From positions 238,478 through 302,477 of the forward strand of contig CAXXDV010000003.1 of assembly GCA_963674745.2 (NCBI GenBank): a stretch of 64,000 nucleotides of DNA, written 5' to 3'. The translations under genes were made by a program, and so were the position numbers. Shown one piece after another: positions 168 through 21,569 of the stretch. A model generated the notes under the pieces. That model made no database searches. It had not been told where the DNA came from and saw nothing but the letters and a program-made list of their open reading frames with translations. Positions within the stretch are counted from its first letter, which is position 1; each line of letters begins with the position of its first letter. The DNA comes from Desulfosudaceae bacterium. Its GTDB lineage: Bacteria; Desulfobacterota; Desulfobacteria; Desulfobacterales; Desulfosudaceae.

Positions 168-854
168 TTGAAATACATGATCGAAAACACCGATGATCAT
201 TCGTTTTCCATTATAAACCGGTTTATTGACAACGACGCGGATGTACTGGAATTCGGTTCCGCGGCCGGCTATTTCACCCGCTACTTGACCGAGGAACGCA
301 ATGCTGCGGTGGATATTGTGGAAATAGACAGCGATTGCGCCGCCAAGGCGGCTGTATACGCTCGTGATTCCTACATCGGGGACATAGAGCAGTATGGATG
401 GAAAGACGCTTTTTCGGAAAAGCGTTATGACTATATTCTCTTTTCCGATGTACTTGAACATCTGCGGGATCCCTGGCGGACGCTGAAGGAATCCGTGGGC
501 ATGCTCAAGCCCGGTGGCCGGATCATTTTATCCGTGCCCAACATTGCCCATACGCAGATCCTGTCCAGCTTATATAACAATGATTTTTCCTATTCCGACG
601 TCGGTATTATGGACAGGACCCACCTTCGTTTTTTTACCGAAGCCACCCTTCGGGAATTGATTGATGAGGCCGGCCTGAACGCCGGTGAGGTGGTTCCGGT
701 AGAGGCCCCGGTGTTGCCGAAAAACTGCGGCACACGCTGGAATAAAATATATGTGCCGGCCAGGCTGTGGGAAGCACTCGCCTCCAAAGAACACGCCAAT
801 GCCATTCAATTTGTGGCATGTTGCCAGAAGGAAGATCACGATGGTGACAAATAA
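168..854 (+). CDS. Class I SAM-dependent methyltransferase
   Basis: The ORF carries the motif VLEFGSAAGYFT (SAM-binding motif I) and LKPGGRIILSVPN. The reading frame is open from nt 3 to 167, so this may be the C-terminal domain of a longer protein starting left of the window. An alternative ATG lies at 177. Confidence 0.75.
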   Translation: MKYMIENTDDHSFSIINRFIDNDADVLEFGSAAGYFTRYLTEERNAAVDIVEIDSDCAAKAAVYARDSYIGDIEQYGWKDAFSEKRYDYILFSDVLEHLRDPWRTLKESVGMLKPGGRIILSVPNIAHTQILSSLYNNDFSYSDVGIMDRTHLRFFTEATLRELIDEAGLNAGEVVPVEAPVLPKNCGTRWNKIYVPARLWEALASKEHANAIQFVACCQKEDHDGDK

Positions 855-1638
855 AGCAAAAGTGACGCGCGAACTGCACTGGGAAAATGACAATATCTTT
901 AAAATAGATGACGTGACTTTTGTTGTGGAAGCGGGAGACGGGTTATACAATGCAATCTCCGAAGAACAGACATTTGTTATCGGCAAGTCCCGCCGTCAGC
1001 TGGAAACGATCCAGGGATTGGACTTTCGTAACCCGGTTAAACGGGTTTTTGACCTGGGTATTTACAAGGGCGGCAGTGTCATGTTTTATCACAAACTGTT
1101 TTCCCCGGAAAAGATTGTCGCCGTTGATATTGACAACAAGCCGGTTGAACCCCTGGATGCTTATATCAGCGCCAACGGGCTCGACCGTACAATCCGTACC
1201 TATTATGGCGTGGACCAGTCAGACCCGGACGCGATGGGGGAAATCCTGCGGAAAGAGACGGAAGGACAGTTTTTCGACCTGGTGGTGGACGATGCTTCCC
1301 ATTTGCTCAAAGAGACCCGGGCGTCTTTTAATATGCTCTTGCCCCATGTCGCGCCCGGTGGATACTATATCATTGAAGACTGGGGCTGGGCGCATTGGGA
1401 AGGCGAACACTGGCAGGGGAAAGGTGGCCCCTGGCCGAATGAGCCGCCTTTGTCCAACCTGGTTTTTGAGTTGACCATGCTGCTGGCTTCACGCCCGTTC
1501 GTCGTCGAGTCCATTTTTCTGTTGCCGGCTTATGCCGTAATAAAACGGGGAACGGAAGCACTTGACCGCAAGTCGGGGCAATTCGATATTTCAAACAGCT
1601 GTCTGAATCGCGGCAAACAGGTGCAGTTCCTCGATTGA
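841..1638 (+). CDS. SAM-dependent methyltransferase (CmcI / rhamnosyl O-methyltransferase-like)
   Basis: I place the start at the internal ATG at 841, which overlaps the previous stop (ATGGTGACAAATAA). Motifs are VFDLGIYKGGSVMF, DLVVDDASH and GGYYIIED. The 751 start would overlap the upstream gene by about 100 nt. Confidence 0.65.
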   Translation: MVTNKAKVTRELHWENDNIFKIDDVTFVVEAGDGLYNAISEEQTFVIGKSRRQLETIQGLDFRNPVKRVFDLGIYKGGSVMFYHKLFSPEKIVAVDIDNKPVEPLDAYISANGLDRTIRTYYGVDQSDPDAMGEILRKETEGQFFDLVVDDASHLLKETRASFNMLLPHVAPGGYYIIEDWGWAHWEGEHWQGKGGPWPNEPPLSNLVFELTMLLASRPFVVESIFLLPAYAVIKRGTEALDRKSGQFDISNSCLNRGKQVQFLD

Positions 1639-1654
1639 CCGTTCCTGAAAATGT

Positions 1655-1681
1655 TGTAGGGGCAGGCCCCCGTGCCTGCCC
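1655..1681. repeat. GC-rich hairpin repeat TGTAGGGGCAGGC-CCCCGT-GCCTGCCC
   Basis: This is a perfect 8-bp stem. The 27-mer is identical to 41324..41350. Confidence 0.8.
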
Positions 1682-1777
1682 GGCAGAAGGAGTCAGGGGC
1701 TGGGGGTCAAATCAGCTCGTGAAATATCCGGGTTAAAGCAGAGCAACCGTTTTGGCGAAAGCGCCGGGCGGGCAAGG

Positions 1778-2485
1778 ATGAACATGAAACCGGCTTTATT
1801 TCTTCATATTCAAAAGACGGCCGGCACATCTGTGGTGAAGATGTGCCGTGAATATTATGGAGAAACGCTTGTTTCGCATATCGATTACCGCGGGCGTAAA
1901 CCCGAATCCTTTGAGGAAACGGGTTTTGTTTCCGGTCATTTCGGATATGGTTTTGCCCGACCGCTGATGGGCTCCCGATACAGCTTTACCTTTCTCCGTG
2001 ATCCCGTGGAGCGCGTTTTATCGTTCTATTATTTCTGTTGCCGGTCCGATCCGGATGCCTATGAAATTTACCGGCTGACACAGGAAAATACAATAAATGA
2101 TTTTCTGGACATGGGCCTGGATAATCCCCGGGTCAAAACCCATATCTGGAACCATCAGACCTGGCAACTGGCCTGTGGATGGGGGAATCCTTCCCAAAAA
2201 AGCATATTGGATTACGACGGGGAGGCGATGCTGGGCGAAGCCAGAACACATCTGGCTGAATTCGATTATGTCGGTTTTACAGAATCGTTTGATCAGGATA
2301 TTCATGTCATATTAAACAGTTTAGGCATCAGCCGATCCGCAAAGGCTTTAAAGACCAATGCGGGCGGTCCCAGACCCCGGAAAACCGATTTGTCCTCGTC
2401 CATCCGGGAACGGTTGGCCCGGCTGACGGAGCTGGATCAGACGCTGTACGATTCTGCTCTGGCCGGACGTTTAAAACGCGTCTGA
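1778..2485 (+). CDS. Sulfotransferase family protein
   Basis: It has the N-terminal FLHIQKTAGTSV motif (the HIPKTGGTS-type PAPS-binding motif of the Sulfotransfer_2-like family) and FTFLRDPVERVLSFY. Confidence 0.75.
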   Translation: MNMKPALFLHIQKTAGTSVVKMCREYYGETLVSHIDYRGRKPESFEETGFVSGHFGYGFARPLMGSRYSFTFLRDPVERVLSFYYFCCRSDPDAYEIYRLTQENTINDFLDMGLDNPRVKTHIWNHQTWQLACGWGNPSQKSILDYDGEAMLGEARTHLAEFDYVGFTESFDQDIHVILNSLGISRSAKALKTNAGGPRPRKTDLSSSIRERLARLTELDQTLYDSALAGRLKRV

Positions 2486-2571
2486 ACAGAATCCGGAACA
2501 CCGCCGCCCCCGGCCTGGCGGATTGGTATTGATGCCTTCCGGCTCAGCCGGTTGAGTTAAGGTGGAAATCG

Positions 2572-4551
2572 TTGTTTATGAGCGAACGAAAAGATCAGAC
2601 CGTATACCTTCATCTGGGAACGTATAAAACCGCCACTACTTTTCTGCAGCGCGTTTTGTGGAAGTCATACGATAATCCCGGCGGCGATATTTATTATCCC
2701 CGGGCCGGCATTTACGGAAACGCCCATCATTACCTGACAACAGAAAGTTTTCCGGGTTGGACCAACGGCGTGACGCCGGAAGAATACGAGCAGGCCTGGA
2801 AGCATTTGCTGGCGGATATCAGCGGGAGTAAGGCCGCATCTATTGTTATCAGCTCTGAGATGTTCTGCTCGCTCTCTTTGGCCCGGATACGTTATATAAG
2901 GGAGACGTTGCGCGACTACCCGGTGCGGGCGATTGTCTATTTAAGGCGCCAGGACCAATATATCTCTTCGATGGCGGCGCAAATGGTCAAAGGGTGTAAC
3001 GGCAAACCTGAATACTACACGGACTTGAACCGCGCCGTAAAATTCGTCCGGTCCGAAAAACAGTTTGATTATGAAATCATTTGTGACAAATGGGCATCAG
3101 TAATCGGGAAAGACAATCTGGTGGTGCGTCCTTTTGAGCGGAAGCAATTGCATAAAGAAGATATCCTGGCCGACTTTTTCCATTATCTGCTGGGCATGAC
3201 TGTCCCTCAAAGCGCCGTTCTCCCGGAGCGAAACATAAATCCCCGGCTTTGTCGTGATGCCCTTGAATTCAAACAACTGGTTAATCGTCTGCCGACCGAC
3301 AGGGATACCAAAATCGCCACCCTGCCCGGTCTTCTGGAATATTCACGGAAAATAGATTCCGGAACACAGAACATTTATCAGGAGCATGTGTTGCTGCCGC
3401 TGCCTGAGCGCCGGAAAATCCTTCACCAATGCGCGGACGGCAATGCTAATATTGCCCGCACCTATCTCGGACGGGAAGACGGTGTGTTGTTTATGGAACC
3501 GCTGAACGAACCGGTCGTTGAGTGGAAGCCATATCCCGGGTTAAATGTCGACACGATTGAGGCCATGGTCGGCTATCTGGGTGAGACCAATCCCGGTGTG
3601 GTAGAGCTTCTGGCGCGGGCGGCATTGTCAGCTGACAAGAATGATGCCCAATTGCTGCCTCTGGTTAAAGTGTTAAAAAGATACGTGAATAAAAACAGGT
3701 CGATCGCTTCATTGATGCCGACATCTTTGTTGCGTTCCCGCCCCATTCGTGTGCTGGGGCGATTTCTGGCCAAAACAAAGAAGGCTCCGGCGGTGGCGGC
3801 GCCTAAACACCAGCCGGAACAGGAAATCGCAAAACAGTTTGTCCCGGCCTTATTCCTGCATATCCGAAAGACAGGCGGTACCTCGATTGTCATGCAGGCC
3901 ATGGACCACTATGGCTATGAGAATGTGTGTGGTCATGGTGACTACATGGGCAAGCCGCCGCCGCATTTTAAAAATTTACCTTTTGTTTCCGGGCATTTCG
4001 GGTTTGATTACGCCAGGGAGTTGATGCCCGGTCGGTTTTCGTTTACGTTTTTAAGGGATCCGGTCGAAAGGATTCTTTCCCTGTATTCTTTCTGCCGGGT
4101 TCAGGACCCGGAGGAATTCCCCATCTACCGGGCGGCTTCGGATCATGACCTGGACGGATTTCTGCGGGCGGCTGAAGATGACGGCCTGGTCCGGGCTTAT
4201 ATCTGGAACAGCCAGGTCTGGTGCCTGGCCGCCGGACCCGGTTACGTTGAGACGCTGGAAACAGTGGCACAACCCGACGAAATGTTCAATCAGGCCCTTG
4301 AAAACATCAAACAGTTGTCGTTTGTCGGGATGATTGAGACCTTTGACGCGGACGCCGGATATATTATGCGGGCCTTGAACATGAACGCCGGCGAAAAAGT
4401 CAGAAAAGACAATGTCACCCGGGACAGGATTTCGGTTGAAGGCCTTCCGGAAAAGACGTTGCAGCTGTTAGCGGACCTGACCGAATGGGACCGGAAACTT
4501 TACGACACCGTCCGGCGCAAAAGAGACCGGTTAGCATACCAGGCGGATTGA
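2572..4551 (+). CDS. Two-domain protein with tandem sulfotransferase-type domains
   Basis: The N-terminal half carries YLHLGTYKTATTFLQ (a P-loop-like sulfotransferase-type motif). The C-terminal half carries LFLHIRKTGGTSIV and FTFLRDPVERILSLY, and is paralogous to 1778..2485. The start is either TTG 2572 or ATG 2578. Confidence 0.7.
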   Translation: MFMSERKDQTVYLHLGTYKTATTFLQRVLWKSYDNPGGDIYYPRAGIYGNAHHYLTTESFPGWTNGVTPEEYEQAWKHLLADISGSKAASIVISSEMFCSLSLARIRYIRETLRDYPVRAIVYLRRQDQYISSMAAQMVKGCNGKPEYYTDLNRAVKFVRSEKQFDYEIICDKWASVIGKDNLVVRPFERKQLHKEDILADFFHYLLGMTVPQSAVLPERNINPRLCRDALEFKQLVNRLPTDRDTKIATLPGLLEYSRKIDSGTQNIYQEHVLLPLPERRKILHQCADGNANIARTYLGREDGVLFMEPLNEPVVEWKPYPGLNVDTIEAMVGYLGETNPGVVELLARAALSADKNDAQLLPLVKVLKRYVNKNRSIASLMPTSLLRSRPIRVLGRFLAKTKKAPAVAAPKHQPEQEIAKQFVPALFLHIRKTGGTSIVMQAMDHYGYENVCGHGDYMGKPPPHFKNLPFVSGHFGFDYARELMPGRFSFTFLRDPVERILSLYSFCRVQDPEEFPIYRAASDHDLDGFLRAAEDDGLVRAYIWNSQVWCLAAGPGYVETLETVAQPDEMFNQALENIKQLSFVGMIETFDADAGYIMRALNMNAGEKVRKDNVTRDRISVEGLPEKTLQLLADLTEWDRKLYDTVRRKRDRLAYQAD

Positions 4552-4617
4552 CCAAAGCGCCGATAATCCGGATATCTTTCCCGGGTGAGTCACCTTGAAC
4601 CCGAGTCCCTGGCAAAA

Positions 4618-4643
4618 GGGCACCCACAGGGGGGTGCCCCTCA
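4618..4643. repeat. GC-rich hairpin repeat (GGGCACCC-ACAGGGG-GGGTGCCC, opposite orientation)
   Basis: It belongs to the same family as 1655..1681. Its stem variant is shared with 26557 and 50794. Confidence 0.75.
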
Positions 4644-4807
4644 TTAATTACGTCCTGCGCCTTGCACGAGCGCCCAAATCAACATGTGAAATATGCGGGC
4701 TAAGGGGTTTTGCTTATTGCAAGTCCGGACATAAAACAATATAATGCGTTGAAATAATATAATATAGGTCGGCAATAAGATTAAAACGCCTGGCCAGGAG
4801 GTGGTTG

Positions 4808-6001
4808 ATGACAGACCTGTCTGAAAACAGCGGTTCTCCCCGCTATGTTTACAACAGCCAGAAAACATATCTGGATTTACTTGTAAAGTCCGTTTTGGGG
4901 CTGATTTATGAAGACCCGCCTTATCCGCGTTTCGGGGATGAAGTGTTTAATCTGGATACCCGGCTAAAAGGCCTGGATTGGCCGACAAAGGCCCTTACCA
5001 TGGTCGGCCTTAAACGGTTGATGAATGCCCGGCAACTGGCTGAAAATGTAATTTGGGAAAACGTGCCCGGCGATTTCCTCGAAGCCGGTGTCTGGCGGGG
5101 CGGCGTCGGTATCATGCTGCGGGGGGTTTTGTCGGCCTACGGTGTATCTGATCGTTGTTTATGGCTGGCCGACTCTTTTGAGGGGTTGCCACCGCCGGAC
5201 AAAGACGCTTATCCGTCAGACAGTGCCTCCGAGTTTCACACCTGCCCGGAACTGGCGGTGAATATCGATCAGGTTAAAGGGAATTTTCGAAAATACGATC
5301 TGCTTGATGACCAGGTTGTATTTCTCAAAGGGTGGTTCAAGGACACCCTGCCTCAGGCGCCAATAGACAAGATCGCCCTGTTGCGCCTGGACGGGGACTT
5401 GTATGAATCAACCATGCAGGGCCTGGTTTCGTTATATGATAAAGTCAGTGACAACGGATATATCATTATTGACGATTATCATTGCGTGCCCCAGTGCGCC
5501 CAGGCGGTTGAGGACTTCTGCGCCAAAAGAAACATTTCCCCGGTCTTAAACGAAATCGACGGTGTCGGTGTCTATTGGCGCAAGCAATCCGCTTCGTCCG
5601 GATTGGCAGCGGATGCGTCCGGCGGCGATACAGGGGCGGCGGCAGACAGCGACGTGATGCAGCAGGACACGCATTATGTCAGAATCAATCAGGTCTTGAA
5701 TAAGCGTTATGTCCAACTGGCTGAAAGGGATGCCATGATCGCCGAAAGAGATGCCCGACTGGCCGAAAAAGACGCCCTGATCGTGGAAAAGGACGTGGCG
5801 CAGGCGGAGTTGATCGCGGACCGTGACGAGCAGTTGGCCGAGCGTGATGCCCGGTTTGCGGAACAAAAAGCATTGCTGGCCGAACGTGACGTCAGCATAC
5901 AGAATCTGGAGCATACCATTGAGTTGATGGAATACTCCAGGTCATGGCGTATTACCGCGCCATTGCGATATATCACAGGCCTGCTTTCCGGAAGAAAGTA
6001 A
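4808..6001 (+). CDS. TylF/MycF/NovP-family O-methyltransferase with C-terminal coiled-coil tail
   Basis: Motifs are GDFLEAGVWRGG and LRLDGDLYEST. The C-terminus holds about 9 heptads of xAERDAx followed by SRSWRITAPLRYI. The SD CCAGGAGGTGG precedes ATG 4808. Confidence 0.8.
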   Translation: MTDLSENSGSPRYVYNSQKTYLDLLVKSVLGLIYEDPPYPRFGDEVFNLDTRLKGLDWPTKALTMVGLKRLMNARQLAENVIWENVPGDFLEAGVWRGGVGIMLRGVLSAYGVSDRCLWLADSFEGLPPPDKDAYPSDSASEFHTCPELAVNIDQVKGNFRKYDLLDDQVVFLKGWFKDTLPQAPIDKIALLRLDGDLYESTMQGLVSLYDKVSDNGYIIIDDYHCVPQCAQAVEDFCAKRNISPVLNEIDGVGVYWRKQSASSGLAADASGGDTGAAADSDVMQQDTHYVRINQVLNKRYVQLAERDAMIAERDARLAEKDALIVEKDVAQAELIADRDEQLAERDARFAEQKALLAERDVSIQNLEHTIELMEYSRSWRITAPLRYITGLLSGRK

Positions 6002-6006
6002 TAAAT

Positions 6007-6951
6007 TTGTGTGTCAGTGTCATCATCGTCAATTATAACAGCGGCCGGCTGCTGGCACGATGCCTGAAGTGTCTTGCGCGGCAGACAGTGACGCCGCAAC
6101 AGGTGATGGTTGTCGATAATGCCAGTACCGATGGCTCCTGTGATCTGATTGAAACGCTCGACGGGATGACGCTTGTCCGGGCGGAGACAAACCTGGGGTT
6201 TGCCGCGGGAAACAATCTGGCACTGGCCCGGTGTAGCACCCCGTTTGTCGCGCTTTTAAATCCCGATGCCTTTCCCGAACCCGACTGGCTGGAATCACTC
6301 CTGGACGCGGCGGAGAAATATCCGCAATACGCCATGTTCGGCAGCCGCCTGGTGTCGGCGGAAAACCCCCGCCTGCTGGATGGTGACGGGGATTATTACC
6401 ATGTCAGCGGTATTGTCTGGCGGGAAGGCCATATGCGGCCGGTTAAAGCGCCGTCAGCGCCTCGGGAGGTCTTTTCCCCGTGCGCGGCAGCGGCCTTGTA
6501 TCGGACCGAAGCCGTTAGGGAAGCCGGCGGTTTTGACCCGGATTTTTTCTGCTACCTGGAAGACATTGACCTGGGTTTTCGTCTGCGCTTGAAGGGGTAT
6601 CGTTGCCTGCAGGTGCCGCAGTCCGTGGTTTACCATATGGGGTCGGCCGTTACCGGGGGGAAACGGGGTGATTTTGCGGTATATTACGGTCATCGAAACC
6701 TGGTCTGGGTATATTTCAAAAATATGCCGTCGTATCTGTTCTGGCTGTTTTTACCGCTGCATGTTTTCATGAACCTGATCAGCCTCGGCCTTGCTTTTAA
6801 AAGAGGCCAGAGCAGGGTCATGGCGCGGGCCAAGTTCGACGCCGTTACCGGTATTCCCCGGGCCTGGCGGAAAAGAACCGGGATACAGGGAGACCGCAGG
6901 GTTTCCGCCATTAACCTTTTTAAAGTTATGGATAAACGCATTCTCCGCTGA
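6007..6951 (+). CDS. Glycosyltransferase family 2
   Basis: Motifs are VSVIIVNYNSG, VVDNASTDGS, NLGFAAGNN and a DxD-like EDIDL. The start is uncertain: TTG 6007 is chosen because ATG 5944 overlaps the previous gene by 58 nt. Confidence 0.8.
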   Translation: MCVSVIIVNYNSGRLLARCLKCLARQTVTPQQVMVVDNASTDGSCDLIETLDGMTLVRAETNLGFAAGNNLALARCSTPFVALLNPDAFPEPDWLESLLDAAEKYPQYAMFGSRLVSAENPRLLDGDGDYYHVSGIVWREGHMRPVKAPSAPREVFSPCAAAALYRTEAVREAGGFDPDFFCYLEDIDLGFRLRLKGYRCLQVPQSVVYHMGSAVTGGKRGDFAVYYGHRNLVWVYFKNMPSYLFWLFLPLHVFMNLISLGLAFKRGQSRVMARAKFDAVTGIPRAWRKRTGIQGDRRVSAINLFKVMDKRILR

Positions 6952-14773: not shown

Positions 14774-14853
14774 AAAAATGGTAAAGTGCTATAATTTGTT
14801 CAGAATTGGCATTTGGGGGAATTCCTGGCCGGGCAGAATAAGAAAGAGGGGTT

Positions 14854-15921
14854 ATGGGACAATTGAATGACAAACGGGTACTGGTGACCGGCTGTTGCGG
14901 TACGGTCGGCGGAGAACTGGTCCGCCAACTGCTGTCGGACTATGCCGTTAAAGAACTGGTGGGGCTGGACAACAATGAAAGTGAACTGTTTTTTACCCAG
15001 CAGCGCTACAATGATTATTCGGCGCATTTTTTTCTGGCTGATGTCCGGGACCAGCAACGTTTGATACGGCTGTTTTCAGGGGTGGATATCGTTTTTCATG
15101 CGGCTGCTTTCAAACACGTTATCCTGTGCGAGGTGTCGCCGTTCGAAGCCGTTCAGACCAATATCAACGGTGTACAGAATGTTATCCTGGCCGCTACTGA
15201 AAACCGGGTCAAAACAGTTGTGTTTACCAGCTCGGACAAGGCCGTCAACCCGACCAATGTCATGGGGACCTCCAAGCTGATGGGCGAACGGTTGATGACG
15301 GCCGCCAACAGTAACCTGCGCGGTGGTTTATCGGCGTTTATTTCCACCCGTTTTGGAAACGTTCTCGGGTCCCGGGGATCGGTAATTCCCATTTTCAGGG
15401 ATCAGATCCGCAAGGGCGGGCCGGTTACCATTACTGACGAGGAGATGACACGGTTTATCATGAGTATCCGACAGGCAGTGCAGCTGGTCATTGATTCCGT
15501 GGCCCTTGCCAGGGGTGGCGAAGTCTTTGTCACCAAGATGCCGGTTATCCGCATCCTGGATCTGGCCCATGTCATGATCGCAGAACTGGCGGGAAATTAT
15601 GGCCATTCGCCGGAAGATATAAAGATCGAAATCATCGGTAGCAAGCCCGGTGAGAAACAATACGAAGAACTGATGACCGGTGAGGAGGTTCGCCGTTGTG
15701 TTGAACTGGAGCGGTATTTCGTGGTCAAGCCGGCCTTTACCTCACTTTACCGGGACCTGACCTATTCCTATCCCGATGTGATCAACGGCGTGGTTGACCG
15801 GCCTTATCATTCGGCCAATGAGCCCGCCCTGGACCGTGAGCAGCTGCGCCGTTTCCTGATCGATAACGAACTGCTGGAGGGTGAGGAAGAAGATACGTTC
15901 CGGCCGGACAGGCGCTATTAG
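14854..15921 (+). CDS. Soluble CapD/PseB-like nucleotide-sugar 4,6-dehydratase (SDR)
   Basis: Motifs are KRVLVTGCCGTVGGEL, SSDKAVNPTNVMGTSKLMGE and RFGNVLGSRGSVIP. Confidence 0.8.
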   Translation: MGQLNDKRVLVTGCCGTVGGELVRQLLSDYAVKELVGLDNNESELFFTQQRYNDYSAHFFLADVRDQQRLIRLFSGVDIVFHAAAFKHVILCEVSPFEAVQTNINGVQNVILAATENRVKTVVFTSSDKAVNPTNVMGTSKLMGERLMTAANSNLRGGLSAFISTRFGNVLGSRGSVIPIFRDQIRKGGPVTITDEEMTRFIMSIRQAVQLVIDSVALARGGEVFVTKMPVIRILDLAHVMIAELAGNYGHSPEDIKIEIIGSKPGEKQYEELMTGEEVRRCVELERYFVVKPAFTSLYRDLTYSYPDVINGVVDRPYHSANEPALDREQLRRFLIDNELLEGEEEDTFRPDRRY

Positions 15922-15932
15922 GGGTTGTGGTT

Positions 15933-17120
15933 ATGTCGAACATTCTGATTCTCGGTGGTGACGGTTATCTGGGCTGGCCGACGGCCATGTATTTTTCCGC
16001 CCGCGGCCATGACGTCACGGTGGTCGATAATTATTTTCGTCGAAATGCCTGTACGGAACTGGATGTGGGCATGCTTTACCCCATCCCGACACTTGTTGCC
16101 CGGGCCAAAATCTGGCATGAAAAAACCGGTAGAGAGATCCGGGTGGTCATCGGCGACCTGACGGACCCCGAGATCATGCGGGGCCTGTTTGACGGCCGGG
16201 TGACCTATGTCTGGCCCCCGGAAAAGGCTTTTGCGGGCATCCCGGAAACGGTTTTTCATTATGCCGAACAACCTTCGGCGCCTTATTCGCTGATCAATTA
16301 CAAGTATGCCAATATCACGATTACGAATAATCTTCTGGTGACCAACAACCTGGTGTTCGCACTCAAGGATTTTGCGCCGTCGACCCATGTGGTCCATATC
16401 GGCACCATGGGTGAATACGGCACGCCTGATATTGATATTGAAGAAGGATGGCTCGACATCACCCACAAGGGCCGGACGGATCGGTTTCTGTTTCCCCGAC
16501 AGGCAAGTTCTCTGTATCACACCACCAAAATTATGGATACAGACCTGATGTGGTTCGGGGTGCGCATGTGGAACCTGCGGATAACCGACCTGATGCAGGG
16601 TCCGGTCTACGGTTTTAAGACCGAAGAAACCGGCGATGATGAGCGGTTGTACACGCTTTTTAATTATGATGAGATTTTCGGCACCATCATCAACCGGTTT
16701 GTCCTTCAGGCGGTTGTCGGGTATCCGCTGACGGTTTATGGAAAAGGGGGGCAGACACGCGGTTATCTGAATATTAACGATACCCTGCAATGTGTTTACA
16801 AGGCCTTTGAAACACCGGCCAAAGCAGGTGAACTGCGGATTTTTAATCAGATCATGGAAACCTTTTCGGTCAATGAACTGGCGGAAAAGGTGCGAGCCGT
16901 GGGTAGTGCCCGGGGACATGAGGTGACGGTCGACCATATTGAAAACCCCCGCAAAGAAGCCGAGGAACATTATTACAATCCGGTTTACCAGGGCCTGATT
17001 GATATCGGTGTCGAACCCCATTATCTGACCGATGAGGTACTGGCATCTTTTTTTGAGGCGGTTGAAAAGTTTCGGGATAATGTGCGTCGGGATGTGATTT
17101 TCAGGGGCGTCAAGTGGTGA
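15933..17120 (+). CDS. sqdB: UDP-sulfoquinovose synthase (SQD1/SqdB/Agl3 family)
   Basis: Long collinear similarity to plant SQD1 as I recall it: ILGGDGYLGWPTAMYFS..VDN, EQPSAPYS, IGTMGEYGTPDIDIEEGWLDITHKGRTD..FPRQASSLYHTTK (YxxxK) and DLMQGPVYG. The ATG at 15933 lies 2 codons downstream of GTG 15927. Confidence 0.85.
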   Translation: MSNILILGGDGYLGWPTAMYFSARGHDVTVVDNYFRRNACTELDVGMLYPIPTLVARAKIWHEKTGREIRVVIGDLTDPEIMRGLFDGRVTYVWPPEKAFAGIPETVFHYAEQPSAPYSLINYKYANITITNNLLVTNNLVFALKDFAPSTHVVHIGTMGEYGTPDIDIEEGWLDITHKGRTDRFLFPRQASSLYHTTKIMDTDLMWFGVRMWNLRITDLMQGPVYGFKTEETGDDERLYTLFNYDEIFGTIINRFVLQAVVGYPLTVYGKGGQTRGYLNINDTLQCVYKAFETPAKAGELRIFNQIMETFSVNELAEKVRAVGSARGHEVTVDHIENPRKEAEEHYYNPVYQGLIDIGVEPHYLTDEVLASFFEAVEKFRDNVRRDVIFRGVKW

Positions 17121-17255
17121 TGGCTTCGTAAAAAGCCCAAGATCGGCGTTGCGCTGCATCCTTCGGAACTTCATGTACTTCTATGTACGCTGCATTCCTC
17201 AGGATTTGCGCGCCCCAATTTTATATCTGGGGCTTGAACTTTTTACTTTGCCATC
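17119..17255 (+). repeat. GATGGC...GCCATC structured repeat, copy R2
   Basis: It begins inside the sqdB TGA stop (TGATGGC). The core GCGTTGCGCTGCATCCTTCGGAACTTCATGTACTTCTATGTACGCTGCATTCCTCAGGATTTGCGCGCC is inverted relative to R1. Confidence 0.75.
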
Positions 17256-17291
17256 AGGATTTTGTACGAGGGAGTTAATAGGTGATTATGC

Positions 17292-17320
17292 TTGACAGTC
17301 TGGTGTAGTTTCGTTTAGAT
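17292..17320 (+). promoter_or_regulatory. Candidate sigma70-type promoter
   Basis: TTGACA (17292..17297), a 17-nt spacer and TTAGAT (17315..17320), upstream of the ComEA-like gene. This is a sequence match only. Confidence 0.3.
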
Positions 17321-17448
17321 CAGAATGCGAATAAAATTGGGGGCGAACAATAATCATATTGTTTTACCGGGGCTGATCAGCAGGCCCGGCGCCTGGAAAA
17401 GGCATGACGCTTTTTCCGGTATTTCAACACATTACATGGAGGTAAGAA

Positions 17449-17772
17449 ATGATGACAAAGAAATTCGCAGGTTTATTGTGTCTGGTGGTTCTCGCTCTGG
17501 TCGCTTTGTCCGGCCCTACGCTGGCCGACAGTCAGCAAGAAGGACTGGCTGAAAAAATCAACATTAATACGGCATCGGCTGATGCCCTGATGCAACTGAG
17601 CGGCGTGGGGCGCGCATACGCCAACCGGATTGTTGAATATCGAGAAACGCAGGGATTGTTTTCTCATATTGAAGAAATAAAGAATGTTAAAGGTATCGGT
17701 GACAGGATTTTTGAAAAAAATAAAGATCGTATCACTGTGGAAATCAAAACAAGCAAGAAGACTGATCAATGA
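17449..17772 (+). CDS. ComEA-family helix-hairpin-helix DNA-binding protein (secreted)
   Basis: It has a signal peptide, then ININTASADALMQLSGVGRAYANRIVEYR...IKNVKGIGDRIFEKNK (tandem HhH). The SD GGAGGT lies upstream. Confidence 0.75.
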   Translation: MMTKKFAGLLCLVVLALVALSGPTLADSQQEGLAEKININTASADALMQLSGVGRAYANRIVEYRETQGLFSHIEEIKNVKGIGDRIFEKNKDRITVEIKTSKKTDQ

Positions 17773-17815
17773 GGCAGATGATGTAGCATCAGTCGCTGTT
17801 TTGTTCGCCCTCGGC

Positions 17816-17870
17816 AATGTGCGGTATGGCACTGCGGCATGTACCGCGACCATGCCGCACATTTGTTTTT
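17816..17870 (+). terminator. Rho-independent terminator candidate
   Basis: AATGTGCGGTATGG pairs with CCATGCCGCACATT and is followed by TGTTTTT, about 45 nt after the ComEA-like stop. Confidence 0.55.
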
Positions 17871-17938
17871 GACGGCTTCGTAAAAAAAATAATGGAGCCG
17901 TCAAACGGCCGTTCGCCCGTTTATGGAAAACAGAGTCA

Positions 17939-19867
17939 ATGAAGCGCTTGTATTTTACCAGAAACAGCGTGGTTGTCATTCTGACCGACTTTCTTCTGGT
18001 CGGCCTGGCCTTTTATCTGTCTTTTCTTCTGCGTTTTGATTTTCAGATTCCCCGGCACCATGCCGAGGCGCTGTGGGATGTCTTCCCGCTGGTCCTGCTG
18101 ATCAAGCCGGTAATTTTTTATTATTTTGATTTTTACCGGGGTATGTGGCGATATACCAGTCTTTCCGATCTGTTGAACATCTTTAAAGCAACGATTTTCA
18201 GCAGTCTGATTATCGTGGGCGCCATATTGTTTCTCAATCGGTTCGAAAATATACCCCGGTCGGTGTTTCTGATTGACTGGCTGCTGACAGGCCTTTTTGT
18301 GTCCGGTTTCCGGATCATGATCCGCTTATATTTTGAATACAGCACCGGCGCCAGGCTGACCGATATTTTCAGGATATTGCTGACCGCTGTTTTTCAACGC
18401 GGCAAGGCCGGTGAGACAAAGAAATTGTTAATTGTCGGCGCCGGCAATTGCGGCGAAAAAATTCTTCGTGAAGTCCAGTCCGATTCGCGGCTGGGCTATC
18501 ATGTGATGGGCTTTCTGGACGATAACCCCGCCAAGATCGGCATGAAAATCCATGGCGTAACCGTCCTTAACAGCGTCGCCTTCTTAAAAAATATCGTCGC
18601 CAGGGAAAACGTCGCCGAAGTCATCATTGCTGTCCCCTCGGCAACTTCCGGCCAGATGCGGCAAATCGTCCAGTATTGTGAAGACAGTGGCGTGAAGTAC
18701 AGAACCGTGCCGGGGTATGCGGAACTGGTCAACGGCAGAATCTCGATTTCAGCGGTTCGTGAGGTCGCCTACCAGGATCTGCTGGGCCGGGAGGCGGTTA
18801 CCCTGGACATCGATCAGATCGGTGCCTATTTGAGGGGGCAGAATGTTATTATTACCGGTGCGGGCGGTTCCATCGGTTCCGAACTCAGCCGCCAGGTCTG
18901 CCGTTTTAATCCCGCCCTGGTGATCCTGTTTGAACGGGCGGAAACGTCCCTGTATGAAATTGATCTTGAATTGCGTGATGTCTTCAGGGCCTCGGACATC
19001 GACCTGGTAGCGGTGTTAGGAGACATCCAGGACCGGCGTCAGCTTGATGCCGTATTTGAAAAATACGCACCCGGCGTGGTTTTTCACGCGGCCGCCTACA
19101 AACATGTGCCCATTCTCGAAGCCCACCCCTGGAAGGCGGTCAAGAATAATATCTGCGGCACGCAGAATCTGGTGGAAATATCGCTTGCGCACCATGTTGA
19201 ACGTTTTGTTTTTGTGTCCACCGACAAGGCGGTCCGTCCCGCCAACGTGATGGGTGCTTCCAAGCGGATTGCCGAGATCCTTTTGCAAAGTCAGGACCAC
19301 GGCAGTGATGCCGGCACACAGTTTAAAATCGTCCGTTTCGGCAATGTCATCGGCAGCGCCGGCAGCGTTATCCCTTTGTTTAAAAAACAGATTGCCAGGG
19401 GTGGTCCGGTGACGGTGACCCATCCGGAAGTGACCCGTTATTTCATGACCATTCCCGAAGCCTGCCAGCTGATACTACAGGCCGGCGCCATTGACAGCCA
19501 GCAGGGCAGTAAAACCGAAGTGTATATCCTCAAGATGGGCACACCGGTTAAAATTGTAGACATGGCACGTGACCTGATTCGGCTTTCCGGTTTCAAACCT
19601 GAAGAGGATATAAAGATTGAGTTTACGGGCCTGCGTCCCGGTGAAAAGCTATACGAAGAGCTGATGACCGCGGAAGAAGGCCTGGTTCCGACATCGCATA
19701 CAAAAATTCTGGTGTTAAACGGTCATGAATCCGACCTGACCGTTTTGAATGAAAAGATTGTCCAGTTGATGAGATCGGCCGAAAACCAGGACGATGAGAA
19801 AATCAGGGCCGTTTTAAAAGAAATTGTTCCCGAATTTCAACCCGGAGAAAATAATGAGAAACACTGA
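17939..19867 (+). CDS. Membrane-anchored CapD/WbpM/PglF-type UDP-HexNAc 4,6-dehydratase
   Basis: It has four N-terminal TM helices, then LIVGAGNCG, VIITGAGGSIGSEL, STDKAVRPANVMGASKRIAE and RFGNVIGSAGSVIP. Confidence 0.85.
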   Translation: MKRLYFTRNSVVVILTDFLLVGLAFYLSFLLRFDFQIPRHHAEALWDVFPLVLLIKPVIFYYFDFYRGMWRYTSLSDLLNIFKATIFSSLIIVGAILFLNRFENIPRSVFLIDWLLTGLFVSGFRIMIRLYFEYSTGARLTDIFRILLTAVFQRGKAGETKKLLIVGAGNCGEKILREVQSDSRLGYHVMGFLDDNPAKIGMKIHGVTVLNSVAFLKNIVARENVAEVIIAVPSATSGQMRQIVQYCEDSGVKYRTVPGYAELVNGRISISAVREVAYQDLLGREAVTLDIDQIGAYLRGQNVIITGAGGSIGSELSRQVCRFNPALVILFERAETSLYEIDLELRDVFRASDIDLVAVLGDIQDRRQLDAVFEKYAPGVVFHAAAYKHVPILEAHPWKAVKNNICGTQNLVEISLAHHVERFVFVSTDKAVRPANVMGASKRIAEILLQSQDHGSDAGTQFKIVRFGNVIGSAGSVIPLFKKQIARGGPVTVTHPEVTRYFMTIPEACQLILQAGAIDSQQGSKTEVYILKMGTPVKIVDMARDLIRLSGFKPEEDIKIEFTGLRPGEKLYEELMTAEEGLVPTSHTKILVLNGHESDLTVLNEKIVQLMRSAENQDDEKIRAVLKEIVPEFQPGENNEKH

Positions 19868-21569
19868 TGCTGCGCCTGTCGGCGAATCGCTTCTGGTCAA
19901 CCTTCTGGTTGATGACCATAAAAGCACGTCTTTAAAAGAACAGGCACTCGGATTTCAGGAGATTATCGTAAACAACAGGCAGTTGTGTGATCTTGACCTG
20001 ATGGCCACCGGTGTATTTACGCCTTTATCCGGATTTATGACCCGTGCCGATTACGAAAGTGTGCTCGAGGGGATGCGTCTGGTTGATGGCCGGCTTTTCC
20101 CTATCCCTGTCTGCCTTGATGTTTCTGCGAAGCAGGCGGAGTCTTTTGACATCGGGCAGCCGGTGGCCTTGAGAGACCAGGAGGGGCTGCTGCTGGCGGT
20201 TATGACAGTTGAAGATGTATGGCACGTGGATCGTAAACGGGAAGCAAAGGCGGTTTACGGTACAACGGACACAAATCACCCGGGAGTGCACTACCTGATG
20301 TCCGTATGTAAGGACTGTTACATCGGCGGTCGGCTGGAAGTGGTTCAGTTGCCGATTCATTTCGATTCCCGGCAATTAAGGCGAACGCCTCTGGAGATCA
20401 GGCAGTTATACAAAAAACTGGGCTGGCAGCGGATTGTCGGCTTTCATACCCGGCAACCCATTCACCGCCCCCAGTTTGAAATGACCATGCGGGCTATGAG
20501 AAGCGCCAGGGCCAACCTGCTTTGCCTGCCGAGTGTGGGGATGACCGATCCGGGTGATTTTGATCATTATATCCGGGTCAGGTGTTACAAGCGGGTGGCC
20601 GACTATTATCCGCTGGATGCTTTTGTGCTGAACCTGCTCCCCATGGCCATGCGAATGGCCGGGCCAAGGGAAGCACTGCTGCATATGATCATTGCCGCCA
20701 ATTTCGGGTGTACGGATTTTATCATCGGCCCGGATCATGCCAGCCCTGAAAAAAAGGAGAATGGCGGTGTGTTTTATGGGGCCGGACTGGCAGTTGAAAC
20801 AGCCACCGCTTATTCCGCTGAGGTGGGGGTTCATGTCATTCCTTTTAATGAAATTGTGTATCTGCCGTTTGAAGACGACTATCTGCCCGTTGACGAGGTG
20901 CCCGAAGGCAGTCAGTGTATTTCCCTGTCCGGTGCAATGATTAAAAAACGGTTGGGAACAGGCAAGAAGATCCCTGAATGGGCGACGTTTCCGGAAGTGC
21001 TGGAAGAACTGGAACGGGCCTATCCCCCGCCTGCCAAGCAGGGATTTACCGTTTTTCTGACCGGTCTGTCAGGCGCCGGTAAATCAACTGTCGCCAAAAT
21101 TCTGTACGCCCGCTTTCTTGAAATCGGTACCCGGCCCGTGACCCTTTTGGACGGTGATATCGTAAGGCATAATCTGTCCAGTGAGTTGAATTTTTCAAGA
21201 GAACACAGGGATATCAACGTCAAACGAATCGGCTTTGTGGCCGGTGAAATAACCAAGAATCGGGGTATAGCCATTTGCGCACCCATTGCCCCTTATACCG
21301 TCACCCGAAACGAAGTGCGACAGGTCATCGAGGCCTATGGCGGTTTTATCGAAGTATATATTTCAACACCTATCGCGGAATGTGAAAAGCGGGATCGAAA
21401 AGGCATGTACGCCAAGGCCCGGGCCGGATTGATTACAGGGTTTACGGGTATCGACGATCCTTATCAGGTACCGGAGACACCGGACATTGCGATTGATACC
21501 ACCAACCTGACACCGGATGAGGCGGTCCAGGAGATTTTGGTTTTACTCGGTGAGAGGGGCTATATTTAG
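19854..21569 (+). CDS. Bifunctional ATP sulfurylase / APS kinase (PAPS synthase-type fusion)
   Basis: The N-terminal domain is ATP-sulfurylase-like. The C-terminal APS kinase carries the P-loop FLTGLSGAGKSTVA and LDGDIVRHNLSSELNFSREHRDINVKRIGFVA. ATG 19854 is preceded by GGAGA and overlaps the previous stop. Confidence 0.85.
   Translation: MRNTDAAPVGESLLVNLLVDDHKSTSLKEQALGFQEIIVNNRQLCDLDLMATGVFTPLSGFMTRADYESVLEGMRLVDGRLFPIPVCLDVSAKQAESFDIGQPVALRDQEGLLLAVMTVEDVWHVDRKREAKAVYGTTDTNHPGVHYLMSVCKDCYIGGRLEVVQLPIHFDSRQLRRTPLEIRQLYKKLGWQRIVGFHTRQPIHRPQFEMTMRAMRSARANLLCLPSVGMTDPGDFDHYIRVRCYKRVADYYPLDAFVLNLLPMAMRMAGPREALLHMIIAANFGCTDFIIGPDHASPEKKENGGVFYGAGLAVETATAYSAEVGVHVIPFNEIVYLPFEDDYLPVDEVPEGSQCISLSGAMIKKRLGTGKKIPEWATFPEVLEELERAYPPPAKQGFTVFLTGLSGAGKSTVAKILYARFLEIGTRPVTLLDGDIVRHNLSSELNFSREHRDINVKRIGFVAGEITKNRGIAICAPIAPYTVTRNEVRQVIEAYGGFIEVYISTPIAECEKRDRKGMYAKARAGLITGFTGIDDPYQVPETPDIAIDTTNLTPDEAVQEILVLLGERGYI

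Follow-up and report, generated by a model that had tools for sequence, protein, structure and literature searches.

The SQD1-like protein described here resembles SQD1 of Arabidopsis, SqdB of cyanobacteria and Rhodobacter, and Agl3 of Sulfolobus in its extended-SDR fold, its catalytic Thr/Tyr/Lys, His183, the TMG motif and a Glu-Tyr pair. Agl3 is similar also in serving a glycan (an N-glycan) and not a lipid. It releases UDP-Glc-5,6-ene, which it converts to UDP-sulfoquinovose when sulfite is present; the R101A variant of Agl3 is inactive, and R101 lies within the same AEQ-R-SAP motif (PMC4388408). A second precedent is the Pen/Pal pair of the pseudaminic acid pathway of Bacillus thuringiensis. 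Pen (6bwc) is a UDP-GlcNAc 5,6-dehydratase, and its free ene product goes to a second SDR, Pal (PMC8987622). In the locus described here a short Polysacc_synt_2 enzyme would likewise release UDP-6-deoxy-GlcNAc-5,6-ene for use by a second SDR, but this second enzyme is SQD1-like and not Pal-like, and the locus has no pseudaminic acid genes.

Sulfated surface glycans of bacteria had been called rare in an earlier note on this DNA. They are rare but not unknown, as loci have been sequenced for synechan (the xss cluster of Synechocystis) and for sulfated capsular polysaccharides of Vibrio sp. KMM 8419 and Cobetia marina, which are likewise polysaccharide clusters with sulfotransferase genes. Compared with their published outlines, the present locus differs in having four sulfotransferase domains, including one whose family lacks a Pfam model, in its APS kinase fusion, its SQD1-like cassette and its three probable methyltransferases, and in its host, which is neither a cyanobacterium nor a marine gammaproteobacterium. 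The WbdD-type O-antigen systems of E. coli O8/O9a depend on an ABC transporter and end their chains by means of a methyltransferase. The present locus may resemble them: it has a WecA-type initiator, and its syntenic relative L167 has Wzm/Wzt and an adjoining glycosyltransferase-methyltransferase fusion, although no transporter gene lies within the stretch analysed here.

Extent of the locus and its backbone genes

The stretch of DNA analysed (the window) is 64 kb long. Positions 1..21569 are the distal (right-hand, about 21.5 kb) part of a surface-polysaccharide locus from a Desulfobacterales-type bacterium, and the domain content points to an O-antigen or capsule-type polymer. Housekeeping genes occupy 22-64 kb, with no exporter gene among the large ORFs of this remainder. 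Profile searches with Pfam and NCBIfam models gave the sulfotransferase, SQD1-like, Sat/CysC, glycosyltransferase, dehydratase and MBOAT/AlgX matches, and all domains named in the earlier note were found where it had placed them. A synteny survey showed that the gene order is kept in close relatives with 86-89% identity in the SqdB-like protein. L167 was picked up as a further syntenic relative via the double sulfotransferase (61% identical); to the left of the shared genes it carries Wzm, Wzt and a WbsX-methyltransferase fusion. Since the window edge truncates the first gene and Wzm/Wzt lie immediately upstream in this one relative, the locus continues to the left, in agreement with the earlier note, which had likewise seen no exporter in the window. 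That the host may be a sulfate reducer is suggested solely by how related MAGs are named.

Features lie on the forward strand unless otherwise stated. The edge-cut gene is represented by a class-I methyltransferase domain at 3..854 (Methyltransf_23, 75 bits), the 3' end of a WbsX-glycosyltransferase/methyltransferase fusion that may modify or terminate the chain. Frame 3 is already open at base 3, and positions 3..842 align in tblastn to residues 447-726 of the 729-aa fusion of L167 (67.5% identity), which matches WbsX with 406 bits and also Methyltransf_23; 168..854 was therefore rejected as a stand-alone gene. The next gene (799..1638, alternative start at 751) encodes a conserved 279-aa protein, a CmcI/rhamnosyl-O-methyltransferase-like candidate. 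Its scores are borderline (Methyltransf_24, 26.2 bits against a cut-off of 26.3; RMNT_CmcI, 23.0 against 23.2), and the orthologue in L167 (70% identical) has no Pfam match, so that it is a methyltransferase only possibly and on weak evidence from sequence. A TylF-type sugar O-methyltransferase (4805..6001; PF05711, 304.8 bits) is kept in the relatives.

The WecA/WbpL-type initiator and two GT2s proposed earlier were borne out by Pfam. The two GT2 glycosyltransferases (5944..6951 and 7008..7910) matched PF00535 with 86.5 and 82 bits. They are followed by an NAD(P)-dependent SDR (7984..8862; NAD_binding_10, 68.6 bits; Epimerase, 62.1 bits), which in the relatives always adjoins the GT4 initiator and may be the 4-ketoreductase acting on the WbpM product. 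The initiator, a WecA/WbpL-type polyprenyl-phosphate HexNAc-1-phosphate transferase (9158..10141), matched Glycos_transf_4 with 102.7 bits, and TIGR02380 (wecA) with 94 bits, which is under that model's cut-off. A DUF218/ElyC-like envelope protein (10145..10942; PF02698, 117 bits) is conserved in the locus and likewise remains under the cut-off of the ElyC model NF007794 (89 bits). Near the right end a long-form UDP-GlcNAc 4,6-dehydratase of the WbpM/PglF type with an N-terminal CoA_binding_3 domain (17939..19867) matched PF02719 with 388 bits. A ComEA-type helix-hairpin-helix protein (17449..17772; TIGR00426, 76.5 bits) occupies the same position in the relatives L081-L085 and is given no part in the proposed pathway.

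The O-acetylation pair consists of an AlgX/AlgJ-type SGNH O-acetyltransferase (10957..12189, reverse strand; PF16822, 77.2 bits) and an AlgI/DltB-type MBOAT membrane acyltransferase (12192..13688, reverse strand; PF03062, 116.3 bits). Both domains were confirmed. The AlgX/AlgJ-type gene is absent from the syntenic relatives L081-L085 and L167, and the MBOAT gene is absent from the syntenic relatives as well. Together with the adjacent sulfotransferase gene (13997..14773), which has no orthologue in these relatives, the pair is a window-specific insertion.

Sulfotransferase domains and the APS kinase fusion

Three domains had been proposed as sulfotransferases from their HI(P/Q/R)KT motif, and each matched Pfam Sulfotransfer_2 (PF03567) above its gathering score of 22 bits. 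The first (1778..2485; 39.1 bits, E 1.2e-9) carries HIQKTAGTS and RDPVERVLSFY and has orthologues in the relatives. The second, with HIRKTGGTS, is the C-terminal half (about 235 aa, 31.2 bits) of a two-domain protein (2572..4551). The third (13985/13997..14773; 28.7 bits) carries HIPKTAGIS and RNPVDRELSAY. In all three the HI-KT motif is followed by a 3'-phosphate-binding-type R(D/N)PV(E/D)R..S.Y motif, so that both PAPS-binding motifs are present.

The N-terminal half of 2572..4551 (about 375 aa), proposed as a fourth sulfotransferase-type domain, has no Pfam match. Its AlphaFold model (pLDDT 87.9) gave nearly only sulfotransferases as top Foldseek matches in the PDB, led by 3rnl (E 1.7e-4) and followed by TPST, NDST and 3-OST, at TM-scores of only 0.3-0.5. 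In the alignment of its family H-x-G-x-x-K-T-x-x-T-x-x-Q and R-x7-S are invariant, two distant members match Sulfotransfer_1/3, and the domain stands alone in many proteins. The predicted fold agrees with the proposal and indicates a sulfotransferase-fold family without a Pfam model.

The fusion at 19854..21569 comprises PUA_2, ATP-sulfurylase and APS_kinase domains and is rated bifunctional by NCBIfam (NF004040, 817.7 bits against a cut-off of 669). The kinase P-loop GLSGAGKST is intact. The sulfurylase domain, however, has FHTRQPIHRPQ and GPDHAS where active fungal enzymes have FQTRNPMHRAH and GRDHAG, and these degenerate motifs recur in the relatives. The earlier note had proposed a PAPS synthase; the fused domains and the kinase were found as described, but because of the degenerate motifs it is doubtful that PAPS is made locally from sulfate. 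Judged by these motifs, the sulfurylase domain is probably inactive and the fusion would only phosphorylate APS to PAPS. Kinase-only precedents are the two-domain APS kinase of Thiobacillus denitrificans (3cr8) and the APSK of Entamoeba histolytica (PMC13213808), in which an N-terminal ATP-sulfurylase-like domain without catalytic features likewise precedes an active-looking C-terminal APS kinase. In its catalytic core, however, the window fusion scores higher with the active sulfurylases of fungi (217 bits) and Aquifex (188 bits) than with 3cr8 (132 bits). With four sulfotransferase-type domains, a local APS kinase gene and an SQD1 homologue, the view that sulfur chemistry takes an unusually large share of this polysaccharide locus is supported.

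The SQD1-like gene and its partner dehydratase

The SQD1-like extended SDR (15933..17120) is encoded 11 nt past the stop codon of its partner dehydratase. It matched Arabidopsis SQD1 (1qrr) over the full length (E 2.4e-115, 49% identity) and keeps T145, M146, E148, Y149, Y182, H183, K186 and H96 (SQD1 numbering). On these points its earlier assignment as SQD1/SqdB-like was correct. It scored only 402 bits with the equivalog model NF041015, however, below the cut-off of 575, and it belongs to a clade in which Arg101 of SQD1 is replaced by Pro in 77 of 77 members. The exchanges R101P, N208M and V211P, which separate this type from SQD1, SqdB and Agl3, are near-invariant or invariant in the clade (n=77), and its members share a mean of 76% identity across phyla. 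Pro is found at the Arg101 position in 66 of 92 full-length family representatives. The Pro101-type homologues form a distinct and widespread subfamily and should not be filed as ordinary UDP-sulfoquinovose synthases. That Pro101 makes room for an N-acetyl group, or abolishes dehydration, is conjecture.

The partner (14854..15921; PF02719, 323.7 bits) is a short Polysacc_synt_2 UDP-HexNAc dehydratase of the Pen/CapE/PseB class. Its best PDB match was Pen (6bwc, E 1.4e-81), with CapE and FlaA1 behind. The motif S-D-K...M-x3-K has Met at the Tyr position of Yx3K, as in the 4,6-dehydratases CapE and PglF and unlike Pen, where this Tyr is catalytic. Its identity to Pen (43%) barely exceeds that to CapE (39%), so that the sequence does not reveal whether the product is a 5,6-ene. 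The earlier note had listed it simply among the CapD/WbpM dehydratases.

Pro-type gene and partner dehydratase occurred together in 74 of 80 related genomic loci, in 53 of them on the same strand and within 300 nt, while the characterised enzymes SQD1, SqdB and Agl3 need no such partner. Other gene families were each present in at most 14 loci, and the neighbouring glycan genes vary. The cassette spans Desulfobacterota, Gammaproteobacteria (Legionella, Stutzerimonas, Halomonas, Marinobacter), Campylobacterota, cyanobacteria (Okeania), WOR-3 and Leptospirales, and the pair also adjoins in Allochromatium vinosum DSM 180. An alignment of the Arg101 type served to retrieve a contrast set of 80 metagenome loci (75 Arg, 3 Pro, 2 Ala), and none of these mainly Arg-type loci gave a Polysacc_synt_2 match; the short flanking sequences of its three Pro-type loci (about 51% identical to the window protein) contained no partner either. 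The signal of co-evolution between the two proteins was only weak (r = 0.10, Mantel p ~0.045).

Since Arg101 is missing, the score is below the equivalog cut-off and the clade is tied to a UDP-HexNAc dehydratase, the sugar made may not be sulfoquinovose. We favour, with slightly better than even confidence and from sequence comparisons, the reading that two enzymes together make a 6-sulfo-6-deoxy-HexNAc-type nucleotide sugar for a methylated, O-sulfated and strain-specifically O-acetylated glycan. The cassette would then point to an undescribed sulfonated sugar.

It is rather unlikely, though to be taken seriously, that the homologue acts on UDP-glucose by itself, as an ordinary UDP-sulfoquinovose synthase, with sulfoquinovose in the glycan and the short dehydratase making an unrelated 6-deoxy-HexNAc (QuiNAc, FucNAc or bacillosamine-type). 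The identity to SQD1 and the conserved T145/Y182/K186, H183, TMG and E148/Y149 fit this reading, as does the annotation of clade members as UDP-sulfoquinovose synthase by JGI. The Mx3K motif of the partner fits true 4,6-dehydratases, and a DegT aminotransferase, present in 14 of the 80 loci, could take up its 4-keto-6-deoxy-HexNAc. However, the arginine essential in Agl3 is Pro throughout the clade, the equivalog score is too low, and a separate WbpM dehydratase for 6-deoxy-HexNAc is already present in the window. A mere hitch-hiker is also hard to reconcile with an adjacency that is kept across phyla while the rest of the locus varies and that is absent from the contrast set.

The absence of this arginine would suit an enzyme that uses no sulfite and handles the product of its partner differently, for example by Pal-like 4-oxidation, 5,6-reduction and epimerisation or with another nucleophile, leaving the locus with O-sulfate but no C-sulfonate. 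Pen and Pal show that an SDR can take up a free 5,6-ene without sulfur chemistry, and the numerous Pro-type family representatives include no characterised member. We consider this improbable, as the clade is very strongly conserved and the SQD1-specific H183, TMG, E148/Y149, Q209 and H96 are invariant or nearly so. Among 11 matches in a PDB sequence search SQD1 was by far the closest and Pal did not appear, and a quarter of the Pro-type loci (20 of 80) contain sulfur-activation or sulfotransferase genes (CysC and/or Sulfotransfer_3-like). A role in membrane sulfolipid (SQDG) synthesis, with a chance placement in the glycan locus, is very improbable even though SqdB is classically an SQDG gene (PMC13436972), because an SqdX-like GT4 was found in none of the 80 Pro-type loci but lies directly downstream in 7 Arg-type contrast loci, and because in many taxa the Pro-type gene sits within polysaccharide loci with Wzm/Wzt, Wzx and glycosyltransferases, at close spacing and apparently in the orientation of its neighbours.

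Proposed pathway

From the domain identities, motifs, synteny and cassette association observed, we infer the following substrates, order of steps and sulfosugar. Assembly would take place on the cytoplasmic side, with undecaprenyl phosphate as the carrier, and a Wzm/Wzt ABC transporter encoded just to the left of the window would probably export the polymer. WbpM (17939..19867) and the SDR (7984..8862) would supply the 6-deoxy-HexNAc with which the GT4 enzyme (9158..10141) starts the chain, and chain extension would fall to the GT2s together with the WbsX domain of the edge-cut gene. In the two-enzyme route, UDP-GlcNAc would first be turned into a 5,6-ene (or 4-keto-5,6-ene) by the Pen/CapE-like dehydratase (14854..15921). 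This intermediate would be oxidised at C4 by the Pro101-type enzyme (15933..17120), which would then attach sulfite to C6 and reduce C4 again, giving UDP-6-sulfo-6-deoxy-HexNAc and not UDP-sulfoquinovose.

The chain would be O-methylated by the TylF-type and the other methyltransferases and O-sulfated by the four sulfotransferase domains, predicted to be cytoplasmic and PAPS-dependent. PAPS would come from the locus-encoded APS kinase acting on APS; if the host is a sulfate reducer, APS and sulfite would be plentiful. In this strain only, the inserted MBOAT/AlgX-type pair and the third sulfotransferase would add O-acetyl groups and extra sulfate.

An SQD1-like enzyme and its conserved dehydratase partner

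The SQD1-like protein encoded at 15933..17120 (+) was homologous to SQD1 over its full length (residues 1-395 against residues 1-382 of 1qrr_A, E = 2.4e-115). Thr145/Tyr182/Lys186, His183 and the T-M-G motif were kept in this protein and in 77/77 members of its clade, and E148/Y149 and H96 of SQD1 were kept in the window protein as well. In the window protein, and throughout the 77 clade sequences, Pro takes the place of Arg101, which is located in the EQ-R-SAP loop. N208 of SQD1 was replaced by Met in 75 of the 77 sequences and V211 by Pro in every one of them. Of 92 full-length sequences representing the whole family, 66 carried Pro and 22 carried Arg at position 101, and all those nearest to plant SQD1 belonged to the Arg type. 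With the equivalog model NF041015 the window protein reached 402.4 bits, which is below the cut-off of 575.

The SQD1-like protein was scanned against one genome per species, which yielded 283 relatives. The best 80, with identities of 67-86%, were kept, and every protein of the window was searched against these Pro-type loci. In this survey of synteny in related genomes only the short Polysacc_synt_2 protein encoded at 14854..15921 (+) was broadly shared; it was found in 74 of the best 80 of 283 loci with 41-91% identity, mostly 53-80%. An ORF-based analysis placed the partner gene at a distance of no more than 300 nt from the SQD1-like gene, on the same strand and either up- or downstream, in 53 of these 80 loci. 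When all ORFs of the best 80 loci were clustered, every other family occurred in at most 14 loci (DegT aminotransferases, a Sulfotransfer_3-like protein, Wzm/Wzt, Wzx, GT4s, WecB/WecC and Gmd). The most interesting element of the locus, overlooked in the earlier note, is the conserved cassette formed by a Pro101 SQD1-like enzyme with a Pen/CapE-like partner.

Among the carriers were Desulfobacterota, Campylobacterota, Okeania cyanobacteria, WOR-3, Leptospirales and Marinimicrobia as well as many Gammaproteobacteria (Legionella, Stutzerimonas, Ectopseudomonas, Halomonas, Marinobacter and Gilvimarinus). In Allochromatium vinosum DSM 180 both cassette genes adjoin each other in a glycosyltransferase-rich locus, at about 238.6-241.0 kb of CP001896. 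Two Okeania loci (L019 and L023) combined a Pro-type SQD1-like gene, the partner and a Sulfotransfer_3-like gene; the Pro-type gene of Okeania is presumably an extra copy besides a canonical Arg-type sqdB. A CysC homologue was present in 10, a Sulfotransfer_3-like gene in 14 and either of them in 20 of the best 80 Pro-type loci, showing that O-sulfation and the cassette recur together, though not always. A mirror-tree comparison of the SQD1-like protein with the partner gave a weak signal (r = 0.10, Mantel p of about 0.045), likely due to the high conservation of the SQD1-like protein and a heterogeneous automatic choice of partner ORFs. As the signal was too weak, co-evolution was set aside as evidence.

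For comparison, metagenomes were scanned with an alignment of Arg-type sequences. This gave 80 loci (75 Arg, 3 Pro and 2 Ala), 31 of which had flanks of at least 1.2 kb on both sides. No Polysacc_synt_2 homologue was found in these 80 mainly Arg-type loci. As the partner occurred in 74/80 Pro-type but in 0/80 mainly Arg-type loci, it is specific to the Pro-type clade. In seven Arg-type loci an SqdX-like GT4 gene was located directly downstream; this is the classical sqdB-sqdX arrangement, which indicates that the Arg-type protein acts as the canonical sulfolipid enzyme.

Possible products of the cassette

The partner has the short Polysacc_synt_2 fold (PF02719, 323.7 bits), and its S-D-K aligns with residues 127-129 of Pen. 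Its best solved relative was Pen of B. thuringiensis (6bwc, E = 1.4e-81), with CapE and FlaA1/PseB behind. The margin was slight, with 43% identity to Pen and 39% to CapE. Instead of the Y-x3-K of Pen the partner has M-x3-K, as do the 4,6-dehydratases CapE and PglF, and for this reason its assignment as a definite 5,6-dehydratase of the Pen type was rejected.

Pen is a UDP-GlcNAc 5,6-dehydratase whose free 5,6-ene serves a second SDR, Pal, as substrate (PMC8987622). Whether the 5,6-ene or a 4-keto-6-deoxy product is released is governed by cofactor geometry (reviewed in PMC8987622). Agl3, the UDP-sulfoquinovose synthase of Sulfolobus, releases UDP-Glc-5,6-ene and forms UDP-sulfoquinovose when sulfite is supplied; its R101A variant is inactive, and the mutagenic primer places the equivalent Arg in an AEQ-R-SAP motif (PMC4388408). 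Activity units of Agl3 were defined by ene formation from UDP-Glc (PMC4388408). If R101A was measured with this assay, the Arg residue is needed for the oxidation/dehydration half-reaction.

From these three precedents combined, namely Pen-Pal, ene release by Agl3 and the assay of Agl3 R101A, it is proposed that the dehydration step has been handed over to the partner, which would make a UDP-HexNAc-5,6-ene. The Pro101 SQD1-like enzyme would then oxidize C4, add sulfite to C6 and reduce C4, giving a UDP-6-sulfo-6-deoxy-HexNAc. The proposal resembles the Pen-Pal system in that an ene is passed to a second SDR, and it differs in the Met residue of the partner where Pen has Tyr. We tentatively put forward the possibility that Pro101 homologues act with Pen/CapE-like partners in an uncharacterised pathway of two enzymes, which would be widespread and lead to a nucleotide sulfosugar of this new kind.

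According to the main rival explanation the SQD1-like enzyme still makes ordinary UDP-sulfoquinovose, while the partner makes an unrelated 6-deoxy-HexNAc. The Met-x3-K of the partner, which matches CapE and PglF, speaks for it. The earlier note had called the protein a UDP-sulfoquinovose synthase homologue, and the full-length homology and the catalytic residues bear out this relationship. However, the loss of Arg101, the score below the equivalog cut-off and the lack of an SqdX-like neighbour count against the function, and we regard this explanation as rather unlikely. A role in SQDG sulfolipid synthesis was rejected, as no SqdX-like ORF was found in the locus regions of the best 80 Pro-type loci.

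The only sulfosugars listed in the literature consulted are sulfoquinovose, present in lipids and in the N-glycan of Sulfolobus, and sulfofucose, present in an alga and in Thermoplasma; sulforhamnose occurs only as a transient catabolic intermediate, and the biosynthetic route to sulfofucose is stated as not known (bioRxiv 10.1101/2023.08.01.551581). No source in bacterial glycans is given in this preprint of 2025, which comes from a sulfosugar laboratory (bioRxiv 10.1101/2023.08.01.551581). In the literature searched there was no report of an SQD1/sqdB homologue in bacterial polysaccharide loci, no mention of its obligate-looking dehydratase partner and no N-acetylated sulfosugar.

If the proposed UDP-6-sulfo-6-deoxy-HexNAc pathway exists, C-sulfonated sugars would be common in O-antigens and capsules of many phyla, including those of Legionella, Stutzerimonas, Halomonas, Allochromatium and sulfate reducers. 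Much metagenomic 'sqdB' would then not report sulfolipid synthesis, which bears on the use of sqdB as a marker gene. The presence of the cassette in glycan loci would mean a further, new class of organosulfonate producers and probably a new sulfosugar. For the sulfonate part of the sulfur cycle this raises the question of which sulfoglycosidases and sulfoglycolytic routes would degrade that sugar, and the cassette would also matter for cultivable carriers, for example Legionella and Stutzerimonas, in their surface chemistry and their antigenicity. The cassette is directly testable, as A. vinosum DSM 180 carries the pair and so do several other isolates.

Sulfotransferase domains and the sulfurylase/APS-kinase fusion

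ORF listing and Pfam/NCBIfam scans confirmed that all domains named in the earlier note were present, essentially at the positions assigned there. The three ORFs with HIPKTGGTS-type motifs belong to a sulfotransferase family, since all of them matched Sulfotransfer_2 (PF03567) above its gathering threshold of 22 bits. The scores were 39.1 bits for 1778..2485 (+, HIQKTAGTS), 31.2 bits for the C-terminal half of 2572..4551 (+, HIRKTGGTS) and 28.7 bits for 13985/13997..14773 (+, HIPKTAGIS). Both H-I-x-K-T-(A/G)-G-(T/I)-S and R-(D/N)-P-V-x-R-x-L-S-x-Y were present in all three domains. We take the H-I-x-K-T loop to be the 5'-phosphosulfate-binding loop (PKxGxT/S type) and the R...S stretch to be the 3'-phosphate-binding motif.

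The N-terminal half of the 659-aa protein encoded at 2572..4551 had no match in Pfam or NCBIfam, and a profile of its family (alignment A1) gave only chance matches to PDB sequences. Curated sulfotransferase HMMs were reached by 2 of 20 family members, both distant, one matching Sulfotransfer_1 (E = 3.7e-5) and the other Sulfotransfer_3 (E = 1.7e-4). Some homologues stood alone, with a length of about 375 aa, and others were fused to WbsX-type glycosyltransferases. In alignment A1 the motifs H-x-G-x-x-K-T-x-x-T-x-x-Q and R-x7-S were invariant (K17/T18/T21 and R123...S131). An AlphaFold model of the N-terminal half (pLDDT 87.9) was used for a Foldseek search, and sulfotransferases accounted for 12 of the 14 best PDB matches with a probability of 1.00 and a best E of 1.7e-4; the TM-scores were modest (0.26-0.48). 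On all these observations the N-terminal half is taken to be a divergent sulfotransferase-fold domain; the evidence from its fold is suggestive and not strong. Its family, which has no Pfam entry, would also be worth curating.

In unrelated bacteria, namely Methylobacillus, Ca. Brocadia and Pseudomonas, the sulfotransferase domains seen here also recurred fused to TylF methyltransferases, to GT2 or WbsX glycosyltransferases and to an ABC ATPase (proteins P0155 and P0157-P0161). These fusions suggest dedicated multi-domain glycan-modifying enzymes.

The gene at 19854..21569 had been described as a fused PAPS synthase providing PAPS locally. Its three-domain architecture (PUA_2, ATP-sulfurylase and APS_kinase; NF004040, 817.7 bits at a cut-off of 669) was confirmed, and the P-loop GLSGAGKST of the APS kinase is intact, while the regulatory domain of the Penicillium enzyme has GYMNSGKDA instead. 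The catalytic residues of ATP sulfurylase, within the signatures QTRNPxHRAH and GRDHAG, are known from the yeast and Penicillium enzymes. The sulfurylase signatures of the fusion are degenerate: it has FHTRQPIHRPQ where active fungal ATP sulfurylases have FQTRNPMHRAH, and GPDHAS where they have GRDHAG. Both substitutions were kept in relatives. T. denitrificans and E. histolytica have fusions in which the sulfurylase-like domain is inactive and the kinase active (PMC13213808); the window fusion is likened to them by its motif substitutions. Because of the conserved degenerate motifs and these precedents, the gene is read as a predicted APS kinase and not as a full PAPS synthase, and it warns against labelling such fusions as full PAPS synthases. 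The names of relatives and the taxonomy, which are the only basis for this view, suggest a sulfate-reducing host. A sulfate reducer would obtain APS and sulfite through its dissimilatory Sat and APS reductase.

Extent of the locus, export and other genes of the window

The ORF listed as 168..854 is incomplete as a gene; frame 3 is open from base 3, and the gene runs off the left edge of the window. In L167, a syntenic locus from a metagenomic relative, a WbsX-glycosyltransferase/methyltransferase fusion of 729 aa matches bases 3..842 with 67.5% identity over its residues 447-726. Immediately upstream of this orthologous gene L167 has an ABC-2 permease (Wzm) and an ABC ATPase (Wzt). No exporter genes were found in the window, where the search to the right of the locus covered the large ORFs, and the suspected continuation of the locus to the left is borne out by the truncated first gene and by the position of Wzm/Wzt in L167. 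By analogy, export is likely to be ABC-transporter-dependent, which would fit with a finished chain that undergoes methylation in the cytoplasm and PAPS-dependent sulfation.

The nearest relatives were Desulfobacterales/Thermodesulfobacteriota MAGs. In the close relatives L081-L085, whose SqdB-like proteins are 86-89% identical to that of the window, the gene order was sulfotransferase(s), TylF, GT, methyltransferase, GT2, SDR, GT4 initiator and DUF218, followed by the short dehydratase, the SQD1-like gene, a ComEA-like gene, WbpM, Sat/CysC and an AMIN protein. The order in L167 was the same up to the end of its contig. The block 10957..14773 (AlgX-type, MBOAT and third sulfotransferase genes) was missing from L081-L085 and L167 and is a window-specific insertion with DUF218 on one side and the short dehydratase on the other. 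The reported AlgI/AlgJ-type O-acetylation pair is real, consisting of adjoining MBOAT (PF03062, 116.3 bits) and AlgX/AlgJ-type SGNH (PF16822, 77.2 bits) genes on the minus strand.

The interpretation of the region as a sulfur-rich glycan locus held in part: its domains and leftward extension stood, but plain sulfoquinovose and a full PAPS synthase are in doubt. Sulfated bacterial polysaccharide loci are already known for synechan and for Vibrio and Cobetia capsules; the locus described here is of this kind and represents a rich variant.

At 8020-9786 L167 encodes a 588-aa radical-SAM/SPASM protein, with a small sulfotransferase on one side and a double sulfotransferase on the other, which has no counterpart in the window. 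The modification genes of this locus family thus differ among strains. A ComEA-type helix-hairpin-helix gene at 17449..17772 (+), between the SQD1-like gene and WbpM, has no obvious link to glycan synthesis; its position is kept in the relatives with 86-89% identical SqdB-like proteins.

To the right of 21.6 kb the window contains housekeeping genes (GlpABC-like, 2-oxoacid:ferredoxin oxidoreductase, glycerol kinase, DapB, PlsB, pilins and others). A GlpA/DAO-type FAD dehydrogenase at 26669..28320 (-) is split into two overlapping ORFs, 27535..28320 (N-terminal part) and 26669..27655 (C-terminal part with BFD 2Fe-2S), and is a single 551-aa gene in L081-L083. The split suggests a frameshift, which would mean either a pseudogene or an assembly error; in the latter case, caution would apply to other reading frames of the contig. 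At 35273..39669 (-) a 572-aa nucleotidyltransferase and APH-type kinase fusion, resembling sugar-1-kinase/uridylyltransferase, overlaps from directly downstream the gene of a PlsB-type glycerol-3-phosphate acyltransferase (893 aa). At 53596..56436 (+) a tandem pair of paralogues with a methylene-THF-reductase C-terminal-like domain (DUF5981) is followed by a 4Fe-4S protein, and a DUF1846 gene (51813..53345) adjoins. The 828-aa protein encoded at 59924..62410 (-) is an unusual fusion, in which residues 153-312 form a radical-SAM domain and residues 716-792 a C-terminal MBOAT segment.
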